A DNA stretch of 19,395 nucleotides from a virus (taxonomy: Duplodnaviria; Heunggongvirae; Uroviricota; Caudoviricetes). This document shows positions 1,210 to 19,395 of the stretch, one piece after another. A program made the position numbers and the translations under genes. The notes under the pieces are model-generated. The model searched no databases. It saw only the letters and a list, made by a program, of their open reading frames with translations, and was not told the DNA's origin. The stretch lies in IMG/VR virus record IMGVR_UViG_2541047813_000002. One strand, 5' to 3'. Each line of letters begins with the position of its first letter. The first letter of the stretch is position 1.

Positions 1210-1330
1210 GTTGGTTCAGTTGGTTCAGTTGGTTCAATTTGTAAAGAGCGTTGTTTTTATTGTGTTTTTTCTAAAATATTGAACCAACATCAACTCATTT
1301 TGAACCAACACAGCCCAGCTCTGAACCAAC
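1210..1330. repeat. Iteron module A: three contiguous GTTGGTTCA 9-mers (1210-1236), 43-bp AT-rich spacer, three TGAACCAAC 9-mers at 21-bp spacing (1280, 1301, 1322)
   Basis: Read directly from sequence. Reverse complement of module B at 9393-9504. Confidence 0.75.
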
Positions 1331-4120: not shown

Positions 4121-6226
4121 TTATTGAGCTTCTTTTTGTGATGCCTGTGCGACTCTGGTGAGCGATTGTGTGACCGTACTGATCGCTCTGTCATATGCTG
4201 TGCTACCTTTTGGCGTATTTGCCAGACGTAACAAGGCATTTCGTATAACAGGGCTTTCGTATGCCTTCGCTGCTCCGCCTACGGCACCAGCAGCAGGAAC
4301 AACAAACGCAGCCGTTTTTAGCATCCCCGCTAATACTGCTGCGTTTATGATGCCACCACCAACTAACAATCCATAAAGCTGCTGACCATTTAAGTTTTGA
4401 ACGTTCGCTTTTGCCGCGTGTCTTGTATCGTTGAGGTATTTAATAACGCCGTCCAGTTCCTTTCCATGTACGCCTTTAAAGAAAGTTGCTGATTGCTTCC
4501 TGTTCCGGTGTAACGCATTAATAAACTTCTCAACACTGATATTTCCAGACGGATCAGTCGCCTTATCTACAGCATTCTGAACTATGGCTGCTCGTGCGTT
4601 TTGCCTACCATTGTCATCCAGAAGCCTGTAAAGCTGAGAACGTTCTGATGGGCTTTGGCTAAAAACGAGTTTTGTTACATCCTCAGGCGTGGCCTTGCCG
4701 CTGGCTATTGCCTTTTGAACGCGCGTTCTTCCCATCATGTCATTGAATTTAGACCATGAACGATCAACCCTTGCCATATTAATGGCTTCGTCTGCTCCAA
4801 GATTTTTGGCTACGGCTTTTTTCATATCCGCCGTATATGCCTTGTAGATAATATCGCTGGCTTTCTGGAGCGTATCTTTATCAACAGTGTCAGATGACGC
4901 CATAAATCGCTTTCGAAGATCGGTTCTGTTTTCCCTCGCCAGACGCAGGTCATTTGGTCCGCTGGTGATATCGTCTTTAAATTGCTGCAAGACTTTTACC
5001 GCGGCTCTATCCTGAGATTTGCCCGGGCGGCTTAACACGGCAATCTGATTGTCGATAGCTTTTACCGTGTTTGAGAGATCGACAGGGGTATCCCCCATAG
5101 CGTCAATTATGCGGTTATATCGCTTTCCTGCTGCCTCAATGAATTTTTGTTGCCCTTTAGTCGCAGATTCATAAAGCTGTTTATCAGAAATGCCACCCAG
5201 ACCATCGCTAAATGTTCTGACTAAATTTTCTCGTGCTTGTTGTTGATTCAGCCGATTCTTACCGGTTCCAAAAAAAGGAACTCTTTCGCCTAATGTCTGA
5301 GCCTGACTCTGCATAAAGGTTTTATCTTTCAGCATGTCACTGGTCATTAACGGCAGATTTCTTTCCGATGCAAAGTCGACAGCAGCCTTTGCTTCAGGCG
5401 ACATATCACCACGAACAGCCCTCGAAACCGCACTCGCTGTATTTTCCAGCCCCTTACCAATACCACCAATGCCAGCAGAAATTACCGTTTGTAACGGTTC
5501 AATATCTTCTCCACCAGCAAGGCTAGTGGCTCCCTGTAGTGCTAAATCTGTAGCTGCTGATTTTCCTATGGCACCAAGCACCGTTCCAGCCCTGCCAGCT
5601 GGTGTAAACGCCAACGCATTAGCAAGAAACGAAGTCAGGTCTTGCGGTGATAAACCCGGCTTGTTCAGGGCATAATCACCTGATGGCAGAGAAACGATAG
5701 TATTCCCCTTCTCATCCTGCCTTAATGTCGCCCCCATTCCCTGAAGAATCTTTTCCTGAGACGCGTCAGAGCCGAAAAGTTGAGACCATCCAGCCTTTAG
5801 GGCATCCATGCTTAGTGAGTTCAATTCTGGGGCAGAGGCGACATTTTGCAGTCTCTCCATCTCTGGAGTCATTCGGCTTTCGCCTGTTATAGCATCGCGC
5901 ATCGCAGCCCCAAGACTGGCTCCCTGTTCTGCTGAACGCTCAAGCCCCTCTCTTTGCTGAGTAGCTAACTTTGCATACCCTGACGCAAGAGAATTATCAG
6001 ATGATGTATGTTGAATATTTTGAGTTGCTGATTGGGATCGGTCTATTTCATTCGTTGATGGTAGTGGATAGGCAGCATAAAAAGCCTGCTTAGCCTGCTC
6101 TACACTTTCTCCGGCTTGCGGGGCAACGACTTCATTGAAGTATTGCTCCTGAGCCTGCGCTTTTTGTTCTGGTGCTAACGCCTGATACTGTGGAGAGGCG
6201 ATAACATCTTTCCATGCTTTAGCCAT
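4121..6226 (-). CDS. Large Q/A/G-rich protein (701 aa) with C-terminal glycine-zipper hydrophobic segment; phage ejection/DNA-transfer protein-like (P22 gp16-like by size and position)
   Basis: Long ORF; ATGA start/stop overlap with the upstream gene at 6226; C-terminal LLVGGGIINAAVLAGMLKTAAFVVPAAGAVGGAAKA. The family assignment is an inference, not a match. Confidence 0.85.
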   Translation of the reverse strand: MAKAWKDVIASPQYQALAPEQKAQAQEQYFNEVVAPQAGESVEQAKQAFYAAYPLPSTNEIDRSQSATQNIQHTSSDNSLASGYAKLATQQREGLERSAEQGASLGAAMRDAITGESRMTPEMERLQNVASAPELNSLSMDALKAGWSQLFGSDASQEKILQGMGATLRQDEKGNTIVSLPSGDYALNKPGLSPQDLTSFLANALAFTPAGRAGTVLGAIGKSAATDLALQGATSLAGGEDIEPLQTVISAGIGGIGKGLENTASAVSRAVRGDMSPEAKAAVDFASERNLPLMTSDMLKDKTFMQSQAQTLGERVPFFGTGKNRLNQQQARENLVRTFSDGLGGISDKQLYESATKGQQKFIEAAGKRYNRIIDAMGDTPVDLSNTVKAIDNQIAVLSRPGKSQDRAAVKVLQQFKDDITSGPNDLRLARENRTDLRKRFMASSDTVDKDTLQKASDIIYKAYTADMKKAVAKNLGADEAINMARVDRSWSKFNDMMGRTRVQKAIASGKATPEDVTKLVFSQSPSERSQLYRLLDDNGRQNARAAIVQNAVDKATDPSGNISVEKFINALHRNRKQSATFFKGVHGKELDGVIKYLNDTRHAAKANVQNLNGQQLYGLLVGGGIINAAVLAGMLKTAAFVVPAAGAVGGAAKAYESPVIRNALLRLANTPKGSTAYDRAISTVTQSLTRVAQASQKEAQ

Positions 6227-7359
6227 TAATCACCCCATAGTGAAGAAAAGTTACTGCTGGCTGCTGGCTGTGATACCTGCTCAGATTGCGGCAATGTCTG
6301 CGACGAAGAAGAAGTTCCTCTGTCAACTGCTGAAATAACCCGCAAAGCATCATAAGCTCGACCAGAAGCAGCTTTCAGCGAATTGAACTGGTTTTCCATC
6401 TTCCGGCGCTTGGTATCAATGGTTTTTGTGGAGTCGCCAGGCTGAGGGAAATACATTTGATAATATTTTGACATTTCAGCAGGTGCGATAGCTGCCCCTG
6501 TTTCCTGACGGAGTATTGCCATTATTGCGTCATTAGCATTAACAACGTATTGCTGCTCTGTTGGGCTGAGCGTTAAGTTAGCCAGCGTCCCATTACCCAA
6601 AGCATTATTAATGATCGCCACTCGCTGTGGGCTAAGCTGGTCTCTCAGTGTATCTATTGAATCAAGAGCATCCCTAACCCTGTATGCAAATCCAGCAGCT
6701 TTTTTAGCCCCTTCTGGCGACTTTTCCATGATCTTTTGGGCTGTTGGCAAAGCTATTGGACGAAACCCATCTCCAGATATTGGCTGGTTTAGTTTTCCCT
6801 GCTCTTCACTTCCGTCTGTGTAGTATTTTGTGACAGTGCCATCATCGTTTTCTCTAACACTCATTAATTTTTTGGCGTTTGTATTAATTCCAGCCGCTGC
6901 CGCAAATGCCGCCGCCCCCTCTGGATCCGCCTTTAACATTTGAGCGTACTGATTGTAATTCTGCATTGCTGCTGTTGGTGCATATGCTGACGTTAACGCA
7001 TTTGCTCGGCTAATATCCTGCCCTCTCGCCTGAAGTGCTTCGCCAGCCTGATTGCTGCGGATTGTTTCTGCCAACTTGCCACGCTCAATATCCCGACCTT
7101 CCATTTGATCTTTGATATCGAAATACTTCTCATGACCGAGAGAAAACAGTGCCATACTACCAGCAAGCCGCTGGAATCCCTGTGGATCATTAACATGCAT
7201 TTCGGCAACAGACTCAGGAGAAATTCCCAAGCGACGCATTTCATCTTCGTTATCTGCTATGAATTTTCCAAATGCCCCAGTTCCGAGCGAAGATGCGATT
7301 TGAGCACTAGTCGCAAGATGACCAATAGAATTTCTCTGGTCGTCATCAATAAAGCCCAT
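6226..7359 (-). CDS. C-terminal 377 codons of an apparently split ~470-aa gene (P22 gp20-like size)
   Basis: Reading frame stays open and protein-like upstream of the ATG back to a TGA at 7420-7422. No usable RBS before ATG 7359 (AAAGGG abuts the ATG). Confidence 0.75.
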   Translation of the reverse strand: MGFIDDDQRNSIGHLATSAQIASSLGTGAFGKFIADNEDEMRRLGISPESVAEMHVNDPQGFQRLAGSMALFSLGHEKYFDIKDQMEGRDIERGKLAETIRSNQAGEALQARGQDISRANALTSAYAPTAAMQNYNQYAQMLKADPEGAAAFAAAAGINTNAKKLMSVRENDDGTVTKYYTDGSEEQGKLNQPISGDGFRPIALPTAQKIMEKSPEGAKKAAGFAYRVRDALDSIDTLRDQLSPQRVAIINNALGNGTLANLTLSPTEQQYVVNANDAIMAILRQETGAAIAPAEMSKYYQMYFPQPGDSTKTIDTKRRKMENQFNSLKAASGRAYDALRVISAVDRGTSSSSQTLPQSEQVSQPAASSNFSSLWGD

Positions 7360-7634
7360 CCCTTTCTGAACGCTTTCAAATTCTTCTGGATACTCAGCAT
7401 TTTGTTTCTGTCTCCAGACTCAAAAGCCCCGGCATATGCTTTCTGAAACTCTGCTTTACGCTGTTGTTGACGTGCCTGCTGATTAATCTCAGCAACGCCT
7501 CTTAGCCCCTGTAGCGCCATTAAACCTACGTTTGGCTGCTGCTGATACTGCACAGGCTGAGGAACGGAAGAACGAGGAGCATTATCATTTTGCGGTGCCA
7601 TGCTAGGCAGCCCGCCAAGTTGCCATGTCGCCAT
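7257..7634 (-). CDS. N-terminal fragment of the same split gene; translationally coupled to the upstream 225-aa gene (TAATG); protein-like only for the first ~80 codons
   Basis: ATG 7634 overlaps the stop of the 225-aa gene. Sequence is Q-rich like its neighbours until about 7400, then becomes junk-like (ALLMTTREILLVILRLV) where the 377-codon frame takes over. Confidence 0.5.
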   Translation of the reverse strand: MATWQLGGLPSMAPQNDNAPRSSVPQPVQYQQQPNVGLMALQGLRGVAEINQQARQQQRKAEFQKAYAGAFESGDRNKMLSIQKNLKAFRKGWALLMTTREILLVILRLVLKSHLRSELGHLENS

Positions 7635-8311
7635 TAGAATCCAAGCCCCCCAACAAGACCAATAAGCCCACCACCAATAGCCCCGGCGACATTACCTATA
7701 CCCGGAACAACGGAACCAAGTTGCGCACCCGCTAAAGCGCCTGATGCCGCCCCACCAATACCACGCGCAAGACTGGATGGCTGCTGCGCCTGACCTGCAC
7801 GAATAGCGCCAAGCCCCTGCAAGAGTTGCCCGGTATTATTGGCGTAGTTTTGCCCTGCTGTTGCCTGCCCTGATGCCGCATTCATCCCGACATTTAGCAG
7901 GTTTCCATAATTTTGCATTTGCCCACTAAGCCAATTGTTATAAAGCATGGGCGCAATGGAAGATAACTGGTTACTGGTAGCTGTTGAGCCAAGCCCCCCG
8001 GTAGCTTCTGCTGAGACAAGGTTCTGATAACGGGCCTGATCTGCCTGTGTTTTATATAAACCAGAACCAAAGAAATCATTCGCGGCTTTATTCTGCCCTT
8101 CCAGAGTCATCAGTCCTTGTAGTTGTTGTAAAGCAGGCAATCCGACTTCTGCATACGGCTTGAGATTATTCATCACCGTATTCCACTGCTCGCGCTGCAA
8201 ATCAATTGCCTGCTGCTGGGCCTTCGCCTGAGCTTTAGAGGCACCACCATCACCGCCTTTTTCGTATACGGCACGATTGAGATGTTTATGAGCTATATGG
8301 GTAATTAACAT
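7634..8311 (-). CDS. Q/G-rich protein (225 aa) with C-terminal glycine-zipper; ejection-protein-like (P22 gp7-like size)
   Basis: ATG 8311 with AAGGAA upstream; overlaps the stop of the 153-aa gene. Contains EKGGDGGASKAQAKAQQQ and ends GIGNVAGAIGGGLIGLVGGLGF. Confidence 0.85.
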   Translation of the reverse strand: MLITHIAHKHLNRAVYEKGGDGGASKAQAKAQQQAIDLQREQWNTVMNNLKPYAEVGLPALQQLQGLMTLEGQNKAANDFFGSGLYKTQADQARYQNLVSAEATGGLGSTATSNQLSSIAPMLYNNWLSGQMQNYGNLLNVGMNAASGQATAGQNYANNTGQLLQGLGAIRAGQAQQPSSLARGIGGAASGALAGAQLGSVVPGIGNVAGAIGGGLIGLVGGLGF

Positions 8312-8766
8312 TCGCTGAATTCCTTATATTGTTGCCGAGTTAACTGATAAAGCGTTACGCCGACGGGTTTACCACATCTGATATAAGCATCATCAAGGTG
8401 ACCAACACGGGTAGCGCCAAGCAAACGGATAATTGCCCGTCCGTATTTGGTGGTGTCAGGAACCATGGTAATGCTGTTAAGGAATGGTGAGTTTTCGAGA
8501 AGCCATTTGCAGAATAATCGATGCCCTTGCAGTGCATATTCACCACGGAATCCGGGGTCGTACACCGCATGGCATTCAACAATGCTATGCCAGAAGTTAC
8601 GCACTTCATGAACGCCAGCCAGCACCAATCCTTCGTAGATACCGAGATATACCGCATCAGGCTTGATGTAGTACGTGTGCCCCGGCTCAACAATATTTTC
8701 GGTATTGCCAGGCTCGTTAAGAAAGGCCTGTAATCGCACAGGGTTATCAATAAATTTTAGTTCCAT
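8305..8766 (-). CDS. Hypothetical protein (153 aa), first large gene of the operon
   Basis: ATG start; ORF; stop overlaps the start of the next gene. Confidence 0.8.
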   Translation of the reverse strand: MELKFIDNPVRLQAFLNEPGNTENIVEPGHTYYIKPDAVYLGIYEGLVLAGVHEVRNFWHSIVECHAVYDPGFRGEYALQGHRLFCKWLLENSPFLNSITMVPDTTKYGRAIIRLLGATRVGHLDDAYIRCGKPVGVTLYQLTRQQYKEFSEC

Positions 8767-8782
8767 GCGATGCCATCCATTT

Positions 8783-8944
8783 TCACATACAGCCTGCCAG
8801 CGCCTTATCTATTAACCCTCGTGCAATTTCATGCAGAGTTGGCGCTACTCCAATTCCTGATTTTTTACGCTGCTCTTCCTGAATTTTCTTTATCGCTTCC
8901 ATTTGCTTCTCACTTATCAATACCGGCTTTACTGAAATAGCCAT
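8783..8944 (-). CDS. Small RHH-like (ribbon-helix-helix) protein, 53 aa, below the ORF-track size cutoff
   Basis: ATG 8944 preceded by AAGGGGG (4-nt spacer). MAISVKPVLISEKQMEAIKKIQEEQRKKSGIGVAPTLHEIARGLIDKALAGCM has a beta-strand-helix-helix pattern. Ends 16 nt before the 153-aa gene. Confidence 0.45.
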   Translation of the reverse strand: MAISVKPVLISEKQMEAIKKIQEEQRKKSGIGVAPTLHEIARGLIDKALAGCM

Positions 8945-9039
8945 AACGCCCCCTTAGAACTGTATAAAACAACAGTTATTATAGTTTCATAAATCGCAAT
9001 ATTCATCATCGTGATTGCAAAATATGAAACAAATAGCAC

Positions 9040-9071
9040 AAAAAAATGCCACCGCTCAGTAGCTGGTGGCA
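9040..9071 (-). terminator. Rho-independent terminator for the primase transcript
   Basis: On the minus strand: TGCCACC-11 nt-GGTGGCA hairpin followed by TTTTTTT (plus-strand A-run 9040-9046). Confidence 0.55.
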
Positions 9072-9265
9072 TCGTTCTGTGTGTCAGGTTTTGACAGGTT
9101 TTTTATGGACTCTAAAAACTATATTTATGGTGTCGCATTACTCTTCACGGAAGGCGCTTTCCAGTTCTGCCCTTGCTTCTGGCTCCATTGGTAATTTGAT
9201 TCGCGATCAGCTATGCGGATGGTTTGCTGAACAGGCATAACAACTTCTCAGGGGCTGTTTTCTGA

Positions 9266-9342
9266 ACTACGAAAATTTCGTAGTGCTCACTTTCAAAAAC
9301 GTCACGCCCTTGTACACAGGATTTTACGAAAGTCTCGTAAAA
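9266..9342. promoter_or_regulatory. Two palindromes sharing TACGAAA half-sites within the origin region
   Basis: ACTACGAAAATTTCGTAGT (9266-9284, perfect 9-bp arms) and TTTTACG-7nt-CGTAAAA (9322-9342). Confidence 0.35.
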
Positions 9343-9392
9343 CACTCTCTGATGCCAGCCAGGTGTTGTGCGCATCAATTCAGTCACATTGT

Positions 9393-9504
9393 GTTGGTTC
9401 AAAATACCGTGTTGTTGGTTCAGTGTTGGTTCAATAAAAAGAATAAAATCCTTATAAAACAACACTCTTTACAAATTGAACCAACTGAACCAACTGAACC
9501 AACG
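9393..9504. repeat. Iteron module B (putative ori): GTTGGTTCA at 9393, 9414, 9425; AT-rich spacer; three contiguous TGAACCAAC at 9478-9504
   Basis: Read directly; lies between the primase stop (9529) and the terminator; reverse complement of module A. Confidence 0.75.
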
Positions 9505-9528
9505 CCTTTTCTACGCACATGAAGAAGC

Positions 9529-12288
9529 TCATTCTTCAGATGAGTTGTAATCTCCTGGCTGGTAATTGAGTACATAAACGTTTATTTGTCGTCCCTGAAT
9601 ACGTGGTGATTTTCTTTGGTATCCACGACCGCTGTTTGGTGGGGTTAGCATCCCGGCTTTTTTCAACACTTCAGCAAACTGTTTTGCGTTGAAACCACAT
9701 GCGATCTCCTTTTCAAATGTGGCCGGGAATGTGTAGAAAATCATTGGGCTTTCGTCATGTTCTCCACGCTGACGGTATCCGGCTAAATCTTTGATGGGCA
9801 AATCTGCCGGGCTGTATGGAAATGGTGCAAAACGGCTAAGCCCATAGGCATTAAGAAATGCCTCCGTTTGTTCAATAATCTGCTGATGTTCTTTGTTACC
9901 TGTGCCGAACTCGCGCAACCATGCGTTATAGCTGTGCTGTATCGCATCACGGCATGTCTGAGCATCCCAGCCTGTTACAACCTCGCCTAACAGCAATGCG
10001 GCCTCCAGAATGGCAAATCGCGCGGCTACACGGTGAACCTGCTCACCATAATCGGATGGGATCAGACTTCTCCATCTGCTTTCGCAGTCACGAACAGTTT
10101 TAATTGCCTGTTGCTGGTGGTCTGCCAGCCATTTAATCCACTCACGCCCGGCTGCGCCGTGGTGATGCTGGTAAGCGTCTTTCAGTGCGTCTGCGTGCTG
10201 TTTTCCGTTCTGGTAATCGTGAAAGCGTACTGCTTTACTCAACGGAATATTCAGCAGTCGCACCAGTTGTCCGGCTTTGGTTTTTCGCCCGGAAGTAGCG
10301 ATAAATGTTTCTAAATCCATTTCTCCGGTGCTGATTGCCACTGTACGCCAGCGTTTTAGATCCCGGTTTCCACCATCTTTAGCGCCTTGCAGTTTCCCTA
10401 CACCGTTAAATAACGCATAGGCAGACTGTGAAACACTGACAGGATCAGCGCCCTGACCAACTTCATCAAGCGGCATTAGTCCGTCATTGTGGGCGGCGGC
10501 TTCATTTGCCAGCCCCAGCGCGGTTCCGTACCACGTCAGCCGCAGTAAATCAGGGTTGCCGTATAAGCTGCTCGCCACGTTTGCCGTGGTGGTCTTACCT
10601 GCGCTCGACTGCTCATAGAAATGAATGCCGAACCCGTCAGCGCCCACCAGCCCAATCAATGGCGCTGCCAGTGCTGCGCCGATCCCGGTCATCATTGAAT
10701 AGTTACCAAAGGCCAGACGCGCCACGTTATCACGCCAGCTTTTCGCGCTCCCTGAGACGGTATATCCGGCTGCGGCTGAGCTTCTCCCGCTGAACAGCAC
10801 AGGATTTTCAGGTGTTCCGATGATTTCCCCATCAGGCATGATGTACGCTCCGCATTGCCAGCCAGTGGCATGAGCAACACGCCACAATTCACGAGAGCCA
10901 CTGCGTTGTAGCCAGTCTGCCAGTATTGCTCTGAGGCTGCTTTTGGTCGTGACATTTACCCCACCAGCTTTAAGTGTGCGCCATCCTTCACGTTCACCAA
11001 TATCAGCCAGTGGAATGGCAGCGGTTGTCGGCGTTTCAGAACCAAACGACAGCCAGCGAAGAATGAGATACTGGTCTTTATCGTCTCTGCCAGTACCGAT
11101 AACGCTTAACGGCGAACATAACCAGCTTTCGTTATTGATGATTTCTCCACTCTGGCTGTCAGCTCTCGGAGATACCCAATAAATACCATCCTCTCGGCTT
11201 TCTATTCTTGGTTTCAGTGGGTCGGTATCCATAACCTTAAAATCGCTTCCCTCAATGGTCTGTGGCTCCTGTTTCACGCCATTACCCTGTGGTTGGTACA
11301 TTGACTTATTGAACGTTTCTGTGGCGCATTTAATGCCGTGTTTTTGGTGGTAATCATTCCAGTCTGCTTTGTGATCTGTCGGGGGTAATGCCACCCATCC
11401 AGAAACAGATAAAGCTGCTTTTTCTGCTGCTATTCTCCCCGTGTTTTGTCTTCCTTCGCTGTGGTCGTTATCCGCAGCAATGATGATTTGTGCTGAAGGA
11501 TATTTATCCCGCAGTACCTGGGCGACATATAACAGGTTCCCGGCATCAATCGCCGCCACTGTCAGCGCCTCTGGACGAATTAAATGGGCAGATAATGCCG
11601 TTGCCAGCCCTTCTGCGATTAAGATGCTCTGTGTTGTTTCTGGTGCGTTTATGGCGTGATATGCTCCCCGTTTTGCTGAACCTGTCAGGAGTCTTTTTTC
11701 ACCATGTGAGGTAATAGTCTGTGCTGCTGTGACTGCGCCGGATTTATCCACCAGCGCCAGCAACAGAGATCCATCGGGCAACACGGGGAATGTAAAATCA
11801 CCTACCCCTTTCGCAACCAGATAATCAGATTTACCGTTTACAGCCTTTCTGCGCATGTCATCAAACTGACGGGAAAACGTATCCCGTCTTTGTTGTTCGT
11901 CCTTCTCTGCCCTTTTCAGGCGCTCCTGTTCGCGTCGCTGGCGCTCGGTTTCCAGTTGTTCCCGTTTCTGGCTGGTGGCTTCTGGTGTTTCCGTTGTCCG
12001 GTAATCAATACCCAGAACATCAGCGGCAAGAAGCGCCGCCTCTGTTGTGTCGCAGTTATTTACGCGTTTAATTAAATCCAGCCCATCACCAGCGCCGCAC
12101 TGATTACAGATGAAGCTACCGCGCCCGTTGTCATCGAACCGGAATCGATCTTTGCCCCCACATGCAGGGCAGGGAGCATGACGGCGCGGAGAGTCAGGGA
12201 CATTTATGTTCAGGCAGCCCAGCACATGAGGCCAGTTGTTTTCAGACGCACTGATAACCTGACGGATAAGATCAATGTTTCGCATCAC
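9529..12288 (-). CDS. Primase with zinc-ribbon and Toprim domains plus a P-loop NTPase-like domain (P4 alpha-like); probable start ATG at 12285
   Basis: CPACGGKDRFRF...FICNQCG zinc ribbon; Toprim acidic motif IIIAADNDH; P-loop-like SSAGKTT; 919-aa ORF. Confidence 0.95.
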   Translation of the reverse strand: MMRNIDLIRQVISASENNWPHVLGCLNINVPDSPRRHAPCPACGGKDRFRFDDNGRGSFICNQCGAGDGLDLIKRVNNCDTTEAALLAADVLGIDYRTTETPEATSQKREQLETERQRREQERLKRAEKDEQQRRDTFSRQFDDMRRKAVNGKSDYLVAKGVGDFTFPVLPDGSLLLALVDKSGAVTAAQTITSHGEKRLLTGSAKRGAYHAINAPETTQSILIAEGLATALSAHLIRPEALTVAAIDAGNLLYVAQVLRDKYPSAQIIIAADNDHSEGRQNTGRIAAEKAALSVSGWVALPPTDHKADWNDYHQKHGIKCATETFNKSMYQPQGNGVKQEPQTIEGSDFKVMDTDPLKPRIESREDGIYWVSPRADSQSGEIINNESWLCSPLSVIGTGRDDKDQYLILRWLSFGSETPTTAAIPLADIGEREGWRTLKAGGVNVTTKSSLRAILADWLQRSGSRELWRVAHATGWQCGAYIMPDGEIIGTPENPVLFSGRSSAAAGYTVSGSAKSWRDNVARLAFGNYSMMTGIGAALAAPLIGLVGADGFGIHFYEQSSAGKTTTANVASSLYGNPDLLRLTWYGTALGLANEAAAHNDGLMPLDEVGQGADPVSVSQSAYALFNGVGKLQGAKDGGNRDLKRWRTVAISTGEMDLETFIATSGRKTKAGQLVRLLNIPLSKAVRFHDYQNGKQHADALKDAYQHHHGAAGREWIKWLADHQQQAIKTVRDCESRWRSLIPSDYGEQVHRVAARFAILEAALLLGEVVTGWDAQTCRDAIQHSYNAWLREFGTGNKEHQQIIEQTEAFLNAYGLSRFAPFPYSPADLPIKDLAGYRQRGEHDESPMIFYTFPATFEKEIACGFNAKQFAEVLKKAGMLTPPNSGRGYQRKSPRIQGRQINVYVLNYQPGDYNSSEE

Positions 12289-12643
12289 CGTACCCCACGT
12301 GGTCTATAGCGTTTGCGATATGGCTAACCAGCATCTGCCACTTGGTTATTCCGTAATCAGTCAGCATGCCATCATTGTTTAGCCACATATCAAATTCAGC
12401 GGTTGTCGCAAGTTTCCACTTATCGCCGTGGACAGTCCTCATTGCTGGGTACATGAATGCGCAAATCAGATCACAAACATCTGACGGCTTCAGAGATGTA
12501 GTAATGGTGCGTCCCTCTGGCGTCTGAATTGCCATTTTCTCTTCACCAGTAGAATGAAGGTTATGAATCCACACAGCGCCAGCAATCTTTGCCACCTGCT
12601 CTCCGATTGCGGAGCTAAGCGCCATTTCTGCATTTTCACGCAT
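12272..12643 (-). CDS. Hypothetical protein (123 aa); paralog of the upstream 113-aa gene
   Basis: GGGAGG sits 6 nt upstream of ATG 12643; start overlaps upstream stop (ATGCGTGA). Shares NDGMLTDYGITKWQML with KDGLTDVGREIWQSM in the neighbour. Confidence 0.75.
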   Translation of the reverse strand: MRENAEMALSSAIGEQVAKIAGAVWIHNLHSTGEEKMAIQTPEGRTITTSLKPSDVCDLICAFMYPAMRTVHGDKWKLATTAEFDMWLNNDGMLTDYGITKWQMLVSHIANAIDHVGYGDAKH

Positions 12644-12977
12644 GAGAACCTCCCGCTACAGTTGCGCCCATGTCATTAACCATGCTTTGCCATATCTCAC
12701 GCCCGACGTCAGTCAATCCGTCCTTAGTGACGCAACGATCAAGAAGCTCTATCCCCACGGTTTCCCACTGCGGGTAGAACACTTTCATGGCTGCCAGTGT
12801 GTAGCTATCGATCAGGCTGCGAACGCCTTTTACTCCATTGACGATTTCCACACGGACGGCCTCGCCGTCCGCATCAACCATGAAATAGTCCCCGCCGCTG
12901 GTGGAGGTAATGTGGTTATACAGTGCCGACGCATACTTATTTGCCAGCGCATTTAGTCGGAAATTTTTAGTAATCAT
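12636..12977 (-). CDS. Hypothetical protein (113 aa); paralog of the 123-aa gene
   Basis: ATG 12977; ORF; shared motif with the downstream gene. Confidence 0.75.
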   Translation of the reverse strand: MITKNFRLNALANKYASALYNHITSTSGGDYFMVDADGEAVRVEIVNGVKGVRSLIDSYTLAAMKVFYPQWETVGIELLDRCVTKDGLTDVGREIWQSMVNDMGATVAGGSHA

Positions 12978-12987
12978 GGCTCCATCC

Positions 12988-13590
12988 TCAGTGCGTCACT
13001 GGTTCCGCTGGCATGCCGTTTTCATTCAGTTCAGCTATAAAGCTGTTGTGAAGTTCAGCAAGCGTTTCACGACCAAATGGAGTCAGTGCTCCTTGTTCCA
13101 CATCCATCATGGCTCTGTAGAAAATGATGGCGCGTTCTGTGCCAGACTCGATGCCAAAACGTTCTATCATCGCGCCCTCAATGTTGTTTGCCATAGCGAG
13201 GCGCTCTGCTACTGGATACAGCGGCATGGCGACGATGCCGTTGGAATAAACAGCCACTTCGGAAGGATTGCCAGTATCATCAATGATGCTGACAGTGCCG
13301 TTTTCCTCTCTCATTTCCAGCATGAATACTGTTGCGATCAGCCATCTCCACATAATGACGTTATGCTGTGATGTGTAATCGAAATATCCCTGGTTGCCGC
13401 CATCGGCAATAGCGAGATGTATTGACATACCTTCATCTGGTTTATCGTCATAATCCCCGGCATCCAGACGATTTACGGCATCAATATATGAGACGGCCTC
13501 AACGCGTTCTGTCATGCCATCGTTGCTGCGGTACATGATGTTTACGCCGTCAGGCGTTGCTTCTGCATGGAAAGTTAAGAAATTATTCAT
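12988..13590 (-). CDS. Hypothetical protein (200 aa); start reassigned to ATG 13590
   Basis: GAGG RBS, and ATGAATAA overlap with the stop of the upstream 73-aa gene. The ORF-track extension to 13695 overlaps that gene out of frame. Confidence 0.7.
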   Translation of the reverse strand: MNNFLTFHAEATPDGVNIMYRSNDGMTERVEAVSYIDAVNRLDAGDYDDKPDEGMSIHLAIADGGNQGYFDYTSQHNVIMWRWLIATVFMLEMREENGTVSIIDDTGNPSEVAVYSNGIVAMPLYPVAERLAMANNIEGAMIERFGIESGTERAIIFYRAMMDVEQGALTPFGRETLAELHNSFIAELNENGMPAEPVTH

Positions 13591-13804
13591 GTTTCGCCTC
13601 GCCTGAATGATTCTGTAACTCATATTTGCCCAACAATTCGTCCGCTTCCTGAATAGCTTCTGGTACGCCATTGAGCAGTGACATAACCGCGCCAATCATT
13701 AACTTGTCTCTGTTGCTGGGGCTGGCCCCTTCAAGCCAGAACCCTAAAACAGTCTGAACCTGTTCGATGCGACATTGCGCTTCAATGAGCTGGATGTTGG
13801 TCAT
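13583..13804 (-). CDS. Hypothetical small protein (73 aa)
   Basis: ATGA overlap with upstream gene; part of the coupled operon. Confidence 0.65.
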   Translation of the reverse strand: MTNIQLIEAQCRIEQVQTVLGFWLEGASPSNRDKLMIGAVMSLLNGVPEAIQEADELLGKYELQNHSGEAKHE

Positions 13805-14064
13805 TTCGCACTCTCCACATCGATTAAACCGATATCTATCAGGGAGGTAACTTTTTGTAGCCAGCTATTGATTACTGTCGCCTGTTCCCCTCCCACCGAG
13901 GGAACAATCTCATTCATCACATGAACCAGACCTGTGCGCGCTCTGGTAAGCCGTTCAGTCGCGCAATCTGCGGGAGTGAATGTGTCTGGATATGGCTCTT
14001 CGCGCCCCAGCAATGATTCAATTTCCAGCTCACACGGATGACGATAAATTAAGTTGATATTCAT
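13801..14064 (-). CDS. Hypothetical small protein (87 aa)
   Basis: ATGA overlap with upstream gene; part of the coupled operon. Confidence 0.65.
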   Translation of the reverse strand: MNINLIYRHPCELEIESLLGREEPYPDTFTPADCATERLTRARTGLVHVMNEIVPSVGGEQATVINSWLQKVTSLIDIGLIDVESAK

Positions 14065-14255
14065 TTTTCACCCCCAAGAATTACCAGCTCTGCACGGGCA
14101 TCGTTAACCAAAGATGAGCACGCTTTAATCGCATCCACGACATCAGCAGCGTCCATTTCTTCAGCCGAAAGACTGACAGCAACCAGGACAGCCGCTGCTT
14201 GCTCGATTAATTGAAGTGCGGACGTAAGGCGAGGGGTATTAATTGAGTTATTCAT
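14061..14255 (-). CDS. Hypothetical small protein (64 aa; [10 protein letters not shown]...)
   Basis: ATG 14255 with GGGGG upstream; ATGAATAA overlap with the stop at 14248-14250. Confidence 0.6.
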   Translation of the reverse strand: MNNSINTPRLTSALQLIEQAAAVLVAVSLSAEEMDAADVVDAIKACSSLVNDARAELVILGGEK

Positions 14256-14466
14256 TGGTTGCCCCCGTTTTTCCTGGCATTTCGCCACCTTCCAGCAGGA
14301 AATGAACGTCGCGAACGGCGAGGTCCAATATCGCGAGTAACGCCTTCAGTCTTTCGTCTCGTGAGGGAGAGTTGCTCACCAGAATGTCGTTAATCACTTC
14401 TGTCAGTGTGATGATCTGGCTTGTGCGTTCGAGGGGGTCCATATGCACATCGTAGGTTTTAATCAT
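14248..14466 (-). CDS. Hypothetical small protein (72 aa; [17 protein letters not shown]...)
   Basis: GGAGGTGG sits 6 nt upstream of ATG 14466; ATGATTAA overlap with the stop of another frame. In-frame with the long ORF 14248-15315. Confidence 0.5.
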   Translation of the reverse strand: MIKTYDVHMDPLERTSQIITLTEVINDILVSNSPSRDERLKALLAILDLAVRDVHFLLEGGEMPGKTGATNE

Positions 14467-15315
14467 GTGCCACCTCCATGCGGATACGACCAGCAAAAAA
14501 GCAGACGTGATCGCGCACCAGAGAACGGCGAGCATCGCGTTCAGACTCGGCAGCAATATGATGAATTTTGGCGGTAATTGTCGGGCAATCGCGGCGAACT
14601 GCGGCGATAATCCAGATAAATTGCGTTTTTTGGGTAGGGGTAGTAGCCAGCATGTGGCAGCCTCCTTGTACTGGGAATTCTTCCCACCACCGGAGCTGCG
14701 AAACTCGCTGGTGGTGGACTGAACAGAGTTCGCAGTACCGGCGTACAAGGAAACCGGCCAGCCTTTCGGCTGCCCTGTCCAGCCCACCATAATTTTGCAA
14801 GCGACGCGGATTATAACCACATCACTGAAAAAAGTGTGAGTCTGGCTAACGGCACAAAAAAAGACGCTCGGCGCGTCATGTGTCGCCTCGTACATTTCCG
14901 GGCTGCGAAACCCGGCACCCGTTTTATGAGGTGCCTTATAACCATAAACCGTGTTGCCGCATAACGGCAAGCTCTTTTTTATGGACTCCGAAAACTCACT
15001 ATTGGAAGAACCAGAAGCACAGTACATCGTGCTCATTTCGTTAACGTCACGCGCGTGGACGAATGTTTTTGTGGAGTCACTACACGAGCGGAAGACATCA
15101 TCTACGACCAGAAATTTTCTGGCGCAGCCGCTGACCTTCTCAATGCTAATATCATCGCCCGAGATTTCTGGTATGGTTAAGGCATCCGTTCCGACCACCA
15201 GCAAATGATAAACTTTGCTTGTATCTGCTGTATTAATGCCTGACTTTGCCGTCATATTGCTGGATTTTGGCGACATGCCAGCCAGTGAAAATGTCTTCTT
15301 CTGGACGGTTAGCAT
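14248..15315 (-). CDS. Long ORF (355 codons) anchored by a well-supported start at 15315; the 3' extent is doubtful and it may be chimeric. The N-terminal ~150 codons are protein-like.
   Basis: GGAGGTT sits 6 nt upstream of ATG 15315, which overlaps the upstream stop (ATGCTAA). The distal half is W/P/C-rich and overlaps two RBS-supported small ORFs. Confidence 0.4.
14459..14653 (-). CDS. Possible small protein (64 aa; [11 protein letters not shown]...), or part of a structured non-coding region
   Basis: AAGGAGG sits 7 nt upstream of ATG 14653; stop coupled to the next start. The region also has open frames on several other strands and frames and nested inverted repeats. Confidence 0.35.
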   Translation of the reverse strand: MLATTPTQKTQFIWIIAAVRRDCPTITAKIHHIAAESERDARRSLVRDHVCFFAGRIRMEVAHD

Positions 15316-15491
15316 TTGTTAACCTCCGCGAACTCCTTCATGAAACGTGCCAGCGGTTGTACGCATGGCGATTGATACCCGTCGCGATAAAACGTCACTC
15401 GGTTGTGAGACACGCTTTCGACAGTAACGAGTGCTCCGTGGGCATCTTTGTAGCGTTTTTGTGGTTGTGGTGTTCCTGTTGGCTTAGACAT
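15309..15491 (-). CDS. Hypothetical small protein (60 aa; MSKPTGTPQPQKRYKDAHG...)
   Basis: GGAGGTGG sits 5 nt upstream of ATG 15491, which overlaps the stop of the Rha gene. The longer 89-codon ORF would overlap Rha by 95 nt. Confidence 0.55.
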   Translation of the reverse strand: MSKPTGTPQPQKRYKDAHGALVTVESVSHNRVTFYRDGYQSPCVQPLARFMKEFAEVNKC

Positions 15492-16317
15492 TGACCACCT
15501 CCAGACGCTTGGCGAGCCAGCGTTGCGACAGGCGGGTGAGTTCTCCTTTACGCTGCTCATATTCCATGCCCATATCAATTAACGTGATATTGGTGCTTTC
15601 GAGATATGAGAGGTGCTCAAGCTGTTCTGCGTTCATATGGTCGCGAGGTTCGCCAGAATAGCCATTTATCCGCGCCCACTGCTTAGCAGTTAGCCCACCA
15701 AGAACGATACGAGAAATCATATTGCTCTCGTTTGTGTAGTGGTGTTGCTGCGTCGTTTTCCCCTGCTCGGCACGGGCCATATTCAGCGCATCGCACATTG
15801 GCTTAAAGTTGTTTGCGGCACTGATACGGGCTTTTAGCTGGCGACGATAGCGGGCGGCGATTTCAGGCACGCTACGCTGTAATTCTTCCTCGCACTGGAT
15901 GAAATAACGGCGGATAGCGCGACCCTGATCATTGCGTTCGATCATTGCCAGTTCTTTCGCCATTCCGACACTTAACAGATAGTCTTTGCCGGGTCTGCCA
16001 GACTGCTTAATCTTGCTGTAAGCCGCGCCATTCGGGCTTTTCCCCAAATTTGGGGAAATTGTTTTATGGACTGAGTAATCGTGCCCAATGGTGAAGTCAT
16101 ATTCAGAGATGCGATCAGTGATCCATGTAGAGAAGTCTTTTCCCACGCCCAACGCTTTGTGTAACGCTTTTGCGCTAACAATATTGGTTTCACGCCCACC
16201 GATATGACCAGGAATAACCGGGACAATTGCGGCAAATTCATTACCGTTAATTGTGCCCAGAGAGGCGTTCAGATGAGGGGCAGCCTCAGAAATTAATCTG
16301 CTTTTTTCGATGTTCAT
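15484..16317 (-). CDS. Phage antirepressor-family protein (Rha-like N-terminal domain plus KilA-C/ANT-like C-terminal domain), 277 aa
   Basis: GGAGA RBS; motifs DYLLSVGMAKELAMIERNDQGRAIRRYFIQCEEEL and an N-terminal Rha-like segment. Confidence 0.85.
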   Translation of the reverse strand: MNIEKSRLISEAAPHLNASLGTINGNEFAAIVPVIPGHIGGRETNIVSAKALHKALGVGKDFSTWITDRISEYDFTIGHDYSVHKTISPNLGKSPNGAAYSKIKQSGRPGKDYLLSVGMAKELAMIERNDQGRAIRRYFIQCEEELQRSVPEIAARYRRQLKARISAANNFKPMCDALNMARAEQGKTTQQHHYTNESNMISRIVLGGLTAKQWARINGYSGEPRDHMNAEQLEHLSYLESTNITLIDMGMEYEQRKGELTRLSQRWLAKRLEVVNV

Positions 16318-16329
16318 TTTCAGTCTCCG

Positions 16330-16761
16330 TTAGGCGGCGTTAAACGCGTCCGGGTAGAGTTTCAGAATGTCGGCAATTTCCTGCTGAGAAAGTCCGTTGT
16401 GATCATTTATGTTCGCAAGATGGTTAACATGAGTGATCACTTTCAGAACATCACCACGGCAGGAGAAACGGTAGCGAAGGTGTGTTCCGATACCATCAGG
16501 ATTCTTTTCGTCGATACGCTCCAGAGTGATTCCAAGCTGGCGTTCTAACTCTGTTGCATAGTTACGACCAGAAGACAGACGGCAGTAGCGAAGAATGTCA
16601 TTTTCTGTCCATCCCTCTATACCAGTACGCAGCATATAGACTCGGGCGCGATGCTTTTTCGGTGTGCGCTTTGGTGCTTGAAGGGATTTTGTCAGGGGCG
16701 TAACATCAGATACGCGAATATCTGAATTAGCCGCCTGTAATGGGCGGTTTTTCTTATTCAT
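16330..16761 (-). CDS. Hypothetical basic protein (143 aa) coupled to alpA
   Basis: TAATG overlap with the alpA stop; ORF. Confidence 0.75.
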   Translation of the reverse strand: MNKKNRPLQAANSDIRVSDVTPLTKSLQAPKRTPKKHRARVYMLRTGIEGWTENDILRYCRLSSGRNYATELERQLGITLERIDEKNPDGIGTHLRYRFSCRGDVLKVITHVNHLANINDHNGLSQQEIADILKLYPDAFNAA

Positions 16762-16958
16762 TACGCTACCTCGCCACGCGACTCAGCGATGCGCTGATTA
16801 ATCCATTCTTCAATTTCACTTTCAATAAACGCAATTGATCGGCTTCCAATCTTTACAGATTGAGGGAATCGCTGTTCTTTGATGAGCCGATAAATCCACG
16901 CTTTGCTGTAACCAGTACGGCGTTGAACCTCAGAAAGACGAATAAATGATTGAGACAT
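16761..16958 (-). CDS. alpA: AlpA-family HTH transcriptional regulator/excisionase-like protein (65 aa)
   Basis: AGGAG sits 6 nt upstream of ATG; LSEVQRRTGYSKAWIYRLIKEQRFPQSVKIGSRSIAFIESEIEEWI is typical of AlpA. Confidence 0.9.
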   Translation of the reverse strand: MSQSFIRLSEVQRRTGYSKAWIYRLIKEQRFPQSVKIGSRSIAFIESEIEEWINQRIAESRGEVA

Positions 16959-18037: not shown

Positions 18038-18180
18038 ACGCCACCCCGCGCCCCCTAATTCTGACGGCTATGCCAGCCCGTAGGGGTGTACGGGTTTTCG
18101 GGGATCAGCCTAGACATAGCCTATTCTTTGTTCGTCTACATAAGTCTACTACCATTGCTTAACACTGTCTATTCATACAG

Positions 18181-19395
18181 TTAAGCTCGTTTCCCAAACG
18201 AACCATGAACAACGTTCTCCTCCTTCTCCAGCGCATCCATATAGTCGGCATACCATTGAAGCATCTCCCGCCGTCCATCCAGATATTGCGCATGGTTGTA
18301 TGTGCCACGAATTGAGTTCTTATCAACGTGAGCGAGCTGCGTTTCTATCCACGCGGTGTTATAGCCCTGCTCATGCAAAATCGTGCTCATAGTGTGTCGG
18401 AACCCATGACCAGTTACACGTCCAGCGTAGCCAATGCGCTTAAACACTTGGTTTATGCTGGCCTCACTCATTGTTTTCCTTGGATCATTGCGCCCGGGAA
18501 ACATAAGAGGGTAATTGCCTGTTATTTCTCTAATCTTCCCAATAAGCGAAAGAGCCTGCTCAGACAATGGCACAATATGAGGCCGCCGCATTTTCATACG
18601 TGAAGCGGGTATCTCCCAGATAGCCTTGTTGAAATCAATTTCATCCCATAATGCGCCACGTAGTTCGCCAGTCCGCAAGCCGGTGATAATCAGTAGACGA
18701 GCCGCCATAACAACCAATGCGCTTCCTGAGTAACTGGACAATGCCTTGAAAAAATCAGGTAATTCTTTAGCTGTAAGGAAAGGGTAATGATTAGATTCAT
18801 GGCCTTGCATCGCGCTAGTAAGGTCTGGTGCAGGGTTATACTCTGCGCGACCAGTGACTATTGCATAGCGGAAAACTTCCCCGCACCGTTGCCTCACTTT
18901 TTTGGCTTTTTCTGTCGCACCGCGCCCCTCGATGCGCCGCAGCACATTCAGAAGTTCAAGTGGTTTGATTTCGGCGATTGGTTTTTTGCCAATGTAAGGG
19001 AACACATCTTTGTTGAAGGCTTCGAGGATGTCTGAAGCATAACCAGCAGACCATTTTTTTAATTTGCTGCTGTGCCACTCAAGGGCAATATCTTTGAAGG
19101 TGTTGTTTAACTGCGTTTCCCGGGCAATCTTTTCCTCTCGTTTCGCTTCCATCGGATCGATACCACCAGCGATACCTCTTTTCGCATCTTCACGTTTTGC
19201 CCGAGCATCGGCTAGAGTAACCTCAGGATACACACCTAGTGCCAATAGCTTCTCTTTACCAGCTACACGATATTTAAGTCGCCAGTATTTACCTCCATTA
19301 GGTTTTACCAAGAGATACAAACCGCCACCATCGGCCAGCTTGTAAGCCTTCTCTTTTGGCTTGGCTGTGTCTATTTGACGGGCATTGAGTTTCAC
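18181..19395 (-). CDS. int: Tyrosine integrase, P4-type (404 aa); apparent GTG start at the window edge
   Basis: Catalytic motifs HGFRHTMSTILHE (HxxR) and IRGTYNHAQY (Tyr nucleophile); N-terminal arm-binding domain. Confidence 0.95.
   Translation of the reverse strand: MKLNARQIDTAKPKEKAYKLADGGGLYLLVKPNGGKYWRLKYRVAGKEKLLALGVYPEVTLADARAKREDAKRGIAGGIDPMEAKREEKIARETQLNNTFKDIALEWHSSKLKKWSAGYASDILEAFNKDVFPYIGKKPIAEIKPLELLNVLRRIEGRGATEKAKKVRQRCGEVFRYAIVTGRAEYNPAPDLTSAMQGHESNHYPFLTAKELPDFFKALSSYSGSALVVMAARLLIITGLRTGELRGALWDEIDFNKAIWEIPASRMKMRRPHIVPLSEQALSLIGKIREITGNYPLMFPGRNDPRKTMSEASINQVFKRIGYAGRVTGHGFRHTMSTILHEQGYNTAWIETQLAHVDKNSIRGTYNHAQYLDGRREMLQWYADYMDALEKEENVVHGSFGKRA

Follow-up and report, generated by a model that had tools for sequence, protein, structure and literature searches.

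Replication origins of phage satellites

Among SaPIs and phage-inducible chromosomal islands (PICIs), the replication origin is located immediately 3' of the rep gene and consists of 6-12 iterons in two sets of opposed orientation, two or more to a side, which enclose an A+T-rich centre (PMC9371898, PMC7581432, PMC6092414). The iterons are read by the C-terminal domain of the Rep protein, which melts the A+T-rich centre and loads itself as a helicase (PMC9371898, PMC7581432, PMC6092414). For one such island, EcCICFT073, the segment that comprises pri-rep and ori drives plasmid replication (Fillol-Salom et al. 2018, PMC6092414), and a direct reading of its origin sequence revealed the same layout, built from CTGTCTACC repeats. 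A two-site arrangement is seen in P4, where the sequence record places crr immediately 3' of the alpha gene and ori, a second iteron site, 4.7 kb away; ori and crr share one 8-mer, which occurs in each as tandem copies, followed by an A+T-rich spacer and spaced copies.

The stretch of DNA analysed here in full, referred to as the window (19,395 nt), carries an array of 9-bp iterons directly downstream of a gene for a fused primase-helicase, which we call Pri-Rep, and an inverted copy of this array some 8 kb away. The array at 9393-9503 and its inverted twin at 1210-1330 very probably form the replication origin of an island of the EcCIMP1 family, with Pri-Rep as the likely initiator; this was concluded from the match between the layout and both the published SaPI/PICI origins and that of EcCICFT073. 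The closest described system is the Rep-ori design of SaPIs and PICIs (PMC6092414, PMC9371898), and the origin is thus of a known satellite type. What is new is the iteron sequence, the mirror-image copy that brackets a block of cargo genes, and a candidate three-residue specificity determinant.

The likeness to EcCICFT073 extends to gene content, as both elements carry int, alpA, a DUF4222 gene, the primase-helicase gene, the origin and then PerC, and in both the origin lies immediately 3' of the gene, with tandem iterons separated from inverted ones by some 40 bp of A+T-rich DNA. The two differ in the helicase (D5_N/DUF5906/Pox_D5 in EcCICFT073, DUF927 in the window), in the iteron (CTGTCTACC in EcCICFT073, TGAACCAAC in the window), in the second inverted module that the window carries 8 kb away, and in the presence of ejection genes in place of the EcCICFT073 capsid genes. 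The SaPIbov1-type Rep and ori (Ubeda 2007 as cited in PMC7581432; PMC9371898) resemble the window in combining a DUF927 helicase with an origin directly downstream, which in SaPIs has 6-12 iterons in two opposed sets about an A+T-rich centre. In contrast to SaPI, the window belongs to a Gram-negative host, its iterons measure 9 bp rather than 5-6 bp, a P4-alpha-type primase is fused to the helicase, and the C-terminal domain has no detectable similarity to solved structures.

P4 resembles the window in having a homologous N-terminal primase domain, one iteron site directly at the 3' end of the gene and another kilobases away, the two sites of the window being located at 9390-9510 (module B) and 1203-1335 (module A). 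However, the primase domain is all that the P4 alpha protein and Pri-Rep have in common; their Pfam architectures differ, that of P4 alpha being D5_N, DUF5906 and Pox_D5, and the helicase and origin-binding domain of P4 are unrelated by sequence to those of Pri-Rep. The iterons differ as well (TGTTCACC, the type I iteron, in P4 and TGAACCAAC here), and P4 crr is composed of two direct 120-bp repeats, whereas the modules of the window are inverted with respect to each other.

The island and its gene content

The window represents an E. coli island located at tRNA-Thr (thrW)/proA. On the minus strand, its genes run from the integrase through a DUF6387 protein, AlpA, AntA, a DUF4222 protein, Ash and several small ORFs to the primase-helicase, module B, P22-type ejection proteins, AbiD, module A and PerC. 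The features of Gram-negative PICIs are therefore all in place, that is int, alpA, a unidirectional operon, pri-rep, an origin and accessory genes, and mobilisation has been published for a near-identical element: positions 7474-16952 of the window (9.5 kb) are 98% identical to EcCIMP1 of E. coli MP1, in which both modules are present. EcCIMP1 was shown experimentally to be a PICI that is excised and transferred by the P22-like phage Kapi1 (PMC11773190); the paper makes no mention of an origin or of iterons (PMC11773190). The window and EcCIMP1 also share the thrW/proA site beside a MarR/Vat island and the same gene order, and they differ in the cargo between the modules and in the spacing of the module B iterons (21/21 in EcCIMP1, 21/11 in the window). 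The window is a PICI of the EcCIMP1 family at thrW/proA. When the segment 8770-9560 was used as a query, it was found to be 100% identical to strain UPEC132 and to have matches in 573 of 5426 complete E. coli genomes, roughly a tenth of them. The array gives the EcCIMP1 family a concrete candidate origin.

Positions 4121-8766 contain P22-type DNA-ejection genes (DUF2824/gp14-like, gp7, gp20 and gp16-like), here found within a PICI. The gp20 gene is split by a frameshift in the window (7257-7634 and 6226-7359) and intact in UPEC132, and in EcCIMP1 a lytic-transglycosylase protein replaces the gp16-like gene. An AbiD abortive-infection gene is located at 1903-2925 (PADLOC 8e-58); lying between the two origin modules and differing in content among the window, UPEC132, MP1 and MDR_56, this position has the appearance of a variable slot for defence genes.

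Pri-Rep, a fused primase-helicase

Pri-Rep (919 aa) is encoded at 9529-12288 on the minus strand and is composed of a Zn-ribbon at aa 35-70 (Pfam Zn_Ribbon_Prim, 2.8e-15), a Toprim domain at aa 222-319 (Pfam Toprim_3, 1e-14), a DUF927 helicase at aa 366-644 (Pfam, 3.5e-47), which reaches to about residue 814 by PDB alignment, and a C-terminal domain. Residues 403-814 match PDB entry 8TCH, 'Pathogenicity island protein' (E = 1e-11), and also the SCCmec helicase Cch, and DUF927 has been placed with the SaPIbov1 Rep family (PMC7581432). The similarity to P4 alpha (32% identity, E = 3e-41) spans residues 8-362, and there the alignment ends. Since the match to P4 alpha stops at residue 362 and the helicase matches DUF927 and 8TCH, Pri-Rep is, to judge from its sequence, a fusion of an alpha-type primase domain with a SaPI-Rep-type helicase. 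It can be viewed as a helicase of the SaPI/PICI Rep kind to which a primase (Zn-ribbon and Toprim) has been joined; in SaPI/PICI replicons the primase is either encoded upstream of the self-loading Rep helicase or fused to it.

The C-terminal domain (about residues 815-919, some 105 residues) had no match in Pfam, nor in the PDB when a profile of it was searched, and a comparison with the C-terminus of P4 alpha by hhalign (probability 0.2) detected no similarity. Alignments for AlphaFold2 were shallow and the resulting models unusable (pLDDT 51.7 for the C-terminal 130 aa and 38.7 for the full-length protein), and a Foldseek search of the PDB returned nothing below E = 0.3. In SaPI Rep the C-terminal domain sets specificity, and the same is proposed for Pri-Rep, where we infer that the domain at about 815-919 reads the iterons.

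The iteron array 3' of the primase-helicase gene

Module B contains three exact copies of TGAACCAAC on the minus strand, at 9393-9401, 9414-9422 and 9425-9433, with start-to-start spacings of 21 and 11 bp or about two and one helical turns, and three exact copies on the plus strand, at 9477, 9486 and 9495, which form a tandem with 9-bp phasing (9477-9503) on the primase-proximal side and are conserved across about 12 genera. The two opposed sets of three flank a 43-bp spacer (9434-9476), 81% A+T, which is the presumed melting site and holds a conserved TTTATAAGG motif. Between the array and the stop codon of the primase-helicase gene (9529-9531) there are 25 bp. Twelve exact copies of TGAACCAAC occur in the 19,395-nt window, where about 0.15 would be expected by chance (2 x 19395 / 4^9), and when at most one mismatch is allowed there are 17 matches, against a mean of 4.7 in shuffled sequence and with 17 reached in 0 of 200 shuffles.

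Two further motifs frame the array, both on the minus strand and both kept in most lineages regardless of the iteron sequence. The first, TCATGTGCGTAG (TCACATGCGTAG-like; 9511-9522), is placed between the stop codon and the first iteron, and the second, CCTGGCTGGCA (9353-9363), which has the form TTCTGGC(T/A/G)GGCA, marks the outer edge of module B and is central in those relatives that have compact origins. The CCTGGCTGGCA motif travels with the primase/origin cassette, as the homology to E. coli MDR_56 (discussed below) breaks off at about window position 9349. No DnaA boxes were found in or near module A or module B, a search of Rfam detected no known RNA family at the module B array, searches of the literature for the 9-mer, single or in tandem, returned nothing relevant, and a search of a phage collection yielded weak and partial matches to two Klebsiella phages only.

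The original prediction, which described six 9-bp iterons, three per orientation, around a 43-bp A+T-rich spacer with 21/11 spacing on one side and tandem copies on the other, placed directly downstream of the primase, is borne out by exact copies at these positions. It had added to this module two nearby palindromes and a terminator, and in these respects it needs to be amended. Two palindromes of the form TACGA-N5-TCGTA are present between 9268 and 9343 (CTACGAAAATTTCGTAG at 9268-9284 and TTTTACGAAAGTCTCGTAAAA at 9323-9343), but they were found in the E. coli lineage only, and they remain with the downstream ejection-gene side when the primase and origin are exchanged, and for these reasons they were rejected as a part of the origin. 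A terminator-like hairpin with a T-run exists at about 9040-9072 on the minus strand, downstream of a 37-codon ORF, but it lies about 320 bp past the array and outside the swapped origin cassette. Neither the palindromes nor the terminator belong to the conserved origin.

Conservation of the layout and change of the iteron

A scan of one genome per species yielded 80 loci that encode relatives of Pri-Rep at 27-100% identity. Among the 61 relatives with enough sequence, 42, from many genera, have a 9-mer that recurs at least five times within 630 bp 3' of the gene, a criterion that was satisfied by 14 of 1480 control windows. As in the window, the iterons of the relatives are located immediately 3' of the gene, and they keep to one layout. 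It opens with a short conserved motif, after which come a tandem of two or three iterons, a spacer rich in A+T that measures about 43 bp and contains TTTATAAGG, and three or four iterons with 11- and 21-bp phasing; in many cases a motif resembling TTCTGGCTGGCA and a further group of iterons, both spaced and tandem, come next. The 9-mer varies by lineage while this layout holds. TGAACCAAC is found in some 12 genera, with protein identities as low as 56%, and the iterons of other lineages include TGAGACAAC, TGAACCGAC, TGGTACAAC, TGGGATAAC, TGACACACT, TGTTACACC, TGTTACCAG and TGTACCCAC, among others. Within 17 loci of the TGAACCAAC type, from about 12 genera, the iteron columns reach 97% conservation, as against 73% for the intervening columns.

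In a distant clade of relatives (L058-L064, L050, L051, L059), a gene about 100 bp past the origin resembles, by eye, an Ogr/Delta-type zinc-finger activator. If this assignment is right, DUF927 Pri-Rep proteins also serve P4-like satellites.

A candidate specificity determinant and a natural cassette swap

Co-variation between protein and iteron was analysed in an alignment of 44 proteins, in which 21 of the TGAACCAAC type were compared with 7 of the TGAGACAAC type, the two groups being mixed with respect to overall identity. Five of about 919 columns separate the two types; four of the five are located within the last 100 residues, and three of these are adjacent and correspond to residues 892-894 (RKS) of Pri-Rep. 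The motif found here follows the iteron: GYQ-RKS-PRI is paired with TGAACCAAC, Q-GRV, Q-NRT or Q-GRT with TGAGACAAC, QRKT with TGAACCGAC, QAFT with TGGTACAAC and DGKT with TGGGATAAC. In the distant clade, where identity to the window protein is 31-34%, the TGTTACACC-type and the TGTTACCA(G/C)-type proteins are told apart by 2 of 903 columns, and one of these is the K/R position in G[KR]xQxxxRLPE, a motif that was matched by eye to that of the window protein, the clades having been aligned separately. Moreover, protein pairs of this clade that are 97-98% identical overall but have different iterons differ in this very motif. Residues 892-894 are thus predicted, from sequence comparison, to be a candidate iteron specificity determinant, although the C-terminal codons lie 25 bp from the iterons, so that physical linkage within recombination tracts may partly explain the co-variation. 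The natural variants at 892-894 are already paired with TGAACCAAC, TGAGACAAC, TGAACCGAC and TGGTACAAC iterons, and these residues would be useful for the design of orthogonal satellite replicons and for understanding satellite incompatibility.

A natural chimera is provided by E. coli MDR_56 (L002, 9580-13263), which has the same island backbone as the window. Its primase domain is kept to about aa 345 (86% identical overall, with nearly no differences up to about residue 214). Helicase, C-terminal domain and adjacent iterons, with the DNA as far as about window position 9349, have been replaced together by a DUF5906 module, and beyond this module GGTACAGGT/CTGTACC repeats form two clusters, one on either side of a pair of small ORFs. 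This swap implies that the iterons travel with the helicase and C-terminal half of the protein and not with the alpha-type primase half. The movement of helicase, C-terminal domain and origin as one cassette, together with the placement of cargo between origin halves (see below), bears on the shuffling of defence and virion genes among satellites. Matches confined to the N-terminal part of the protein were seen at other loci (L044, L046, L052-L054, L056) and suggest that similar domain shuffling has occurred elsewhere.

These comparisons agree with the original prediction of an iteron origin that serves the adjacent primase gene, since the repeats are conserved in related islands, as it had asked. 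The iteron sequence is, as it had noted, unlike that of P4. The iterons follow the helicase and C-terminal half rather than the alpha-type primase half, and the analogy that it drew with P4 holds for the layout but fails for the protein family, given the DUF927 helicase and a likeness to P4 alpha that is limited to residues 8-362.

A second, inverted module and its possible roles

Module A, which the original prediction had overlooked, is a second set of six iterons in inverted orientation. Three tandem iterons (1210-1236, minus strand, at 1210, 1219 and 1228) are located 37 bp upstream of the PerC start codon and are followed by a 43-bp spacer of 79% A+T (1237-1279) and by three spaced iterons with 21-bp phasing on the plus strand (1280, 1301 and 1322; 1280-1330). 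The longest inverted arms of modules A and B measure 55 nt and are 96% complementary. The modules are 8.2 kb apart and bracket 8 kb of P22-type ejection genes together with the AbiD defence gene.

The arrangement of the two modules differs among relatives. They are adjacent and form one origin of about 300 bp at a number of loci (L007, L008, L009, L011, L024, L030, L032, L034, L035, L047, L080), they are 6-9 kb apart in the window, UPEC132, EcCIMP1 and several others (L016, L022, L027, L039, L041), with split-module elements occurring in Lonsdalea, Chimaeribacter, Pantoea, Leclercia and Cedecea, and some relatives have a single module within the fetched 10-kb flank. Two elements of Lonsdalea britannica, one compact and one split, are collinear except for a 5.9-kb segment from PerC to orf146, which is bounded precisely by the last spaced iteron of module B on one side and by the three tandem iterons of module A on the other. 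As the breakpoints of this segment fall on iterons, cargo can evidently sit between two origin halves, with the iterons as the joints. In MDR_56, module A keeps TGAACCAAC despite the loss of the cognate helicase, and is there either a relic or has a separate role.

One possibility is that the two modules divide the labour as in P4, one module initiating replication and the other acting in cis as an enhancer like crr, which the same protein would bind and loop to; in that case module B would be the crr equivalent. The P4 precedent, in which crr directly follows alpha and ori, made of the same 8-mer, lies 4.7 kb away, is matched here by two complete modules 8.2 kb apart, an arrangement repeated in EcCIMP1, UPEC132 and the Lonsdalea, Chimaeribacter, Pantoea, Leclercia and Cedecea elements. 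Yet in many relatives the modules are adjacent and in some there is one only, the rep-adjacent site is the origin itself in PICIs and SaPIs, and the helicase and C-terminal domain of Pri-Rep are not of the P4 alpha type, so that we regard this division of labour as possible but rather unlikely. It refines the explanation of the repeats as an origin and does not replace it. For a start at module B, P4 is an unfavourable precedent, as the iteron site beside its gene is crr and not the site of initiation.

A different explanation of the inverted modules is that they are recombination sites that delimit an 8-kb cassette able to move or to invert. That 55-nt arms of 96% complementarity flank variable cargo, and that the Lonsdalea elements differ by a segment with its breakpoints exactly on iterons, would be in keeping with such a role. 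The segment contains no recombinase gene, however, the repeats form one compact array in many elements, and a synthetic query that represented the inverted junction had a full-length match in 0 of 5426 complete E. coli genomes, all of which makes an invertible cassette very unlikely.

The location of module A between the divergent genes PerC and orf146, with the start codons 37 bp and about 100 bp away, and its persistence in MDR_56 without the cognate helicase might suggest that the repeats are operators for a regulator of the island, such as PerC or the ribbon-helix-helix-like Orf146, instead of an origin. Against this, orf146 has its own distinct upstream repeats (GTATAACA or GTAAGACA), it occurs at six loci without nearby iterons while many iteron-bearing elements have no orf146, and the iteron sequence tracks the C-terminus of Pri-Rep; the operator explanation is therefore highly improbable. 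Orf146 in particular was rejected as the reader of the iterons on account of its own upstream repeats and its frequent occurrence without iterons. Many genera retain the gene (1433-1873) at the distal end of the cargo region; the N-terminus of Orf146 appears ribbon-helix-helix-like by eye with no significant Pfam match, and repeats of the GTATAACA type are located upstream of the gene at 1384-1415.

Finally, a function of the array as a pac signal for a P22-like helper phage, or as an RNA or DNA hairpin at the 3' end of the primase transcript, can be set aside as extremely improbable, for although EcCIMP1 is packaged by a P22-like phage and the inverted copies are able to fold on themselves in single-stranded DNA (-27 kcal/mol, z = -6.8), the same architecture is found in relatives with quite different partner genes, including the Ogr/Delta type, a hairpin does not need three identical 9-mers in tandem plus copies at helical phasing, and there is no Rfam match at the array.

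A model for initiation

Returning to the preferred explanation, that the two modules are the replication origin of the island, the steps of initiation can be outlined by analogy with the SaPI/PICI systems. Upon induction of the island, Pri-Rep would bind the 9-bp iterons by means of its C-terminal domain, with the residues around Q891-R892-K893-S894 possibly setting the sequence specificity. Oppositely oriented protomers that flank the 43-bp A+T-rich spacer would then melt the spacer, the DUF927 ring would load itself as the helicase, and the N-terminal Zn-ribbon/Toprim domain would make the primers. Binding by Pri-Rep, melting of the spacer, priming and the choice of the module that fires are all steps that we infer from these better described relatives.

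A more far-reaching proposal, which we put forward tentatively and consider on the whole rather doubtful, is that the split mirror-image origin is functional as such. Pri-Rep would bind both modules and either loop out the 8-kb ejection/defence cargo, as in P4 ori/crr, or load one hexamer per module; in addition, the iterons would act as the cargo-exchange joints of the satellites, and a three-residue C-terminal 'code' would set the specificity of the origin and so prevent the cross-replication of co-resident satellites.

Other features of the island

Several small RNAs were recognised by Rfam within the window. Two of them, C4 antisense RNA (81 bits) and isrK (69 bits), fall at 14707-14934 within the frame that is annotated as Ash, and an int-alpA RNA is located at 18053-18120, between int and the DUF6387 gene; together, the C4, isrK and int-alpA RNAs suggest a P1/P4-type RNA immunity region. 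Two short segments just downstream of the origin, 9099-9120 and 9291-9325, resemble 14975-14996 and 15036-15070 (91% and 71% identity, respectively), which form the leader upstream of isrK/C4.

At the other end of the window, positions 1-339 correspond to the 5' third of a second integrase gene, which is 89% identical to the island's own integrase (compared at 19057-19356). The neighbour of the island in UPEC132 and MP1 is the MarR/Vat island, and this neighbour and the fragment of a second integrase gene imply that islands are stacked in tandem at thrW.
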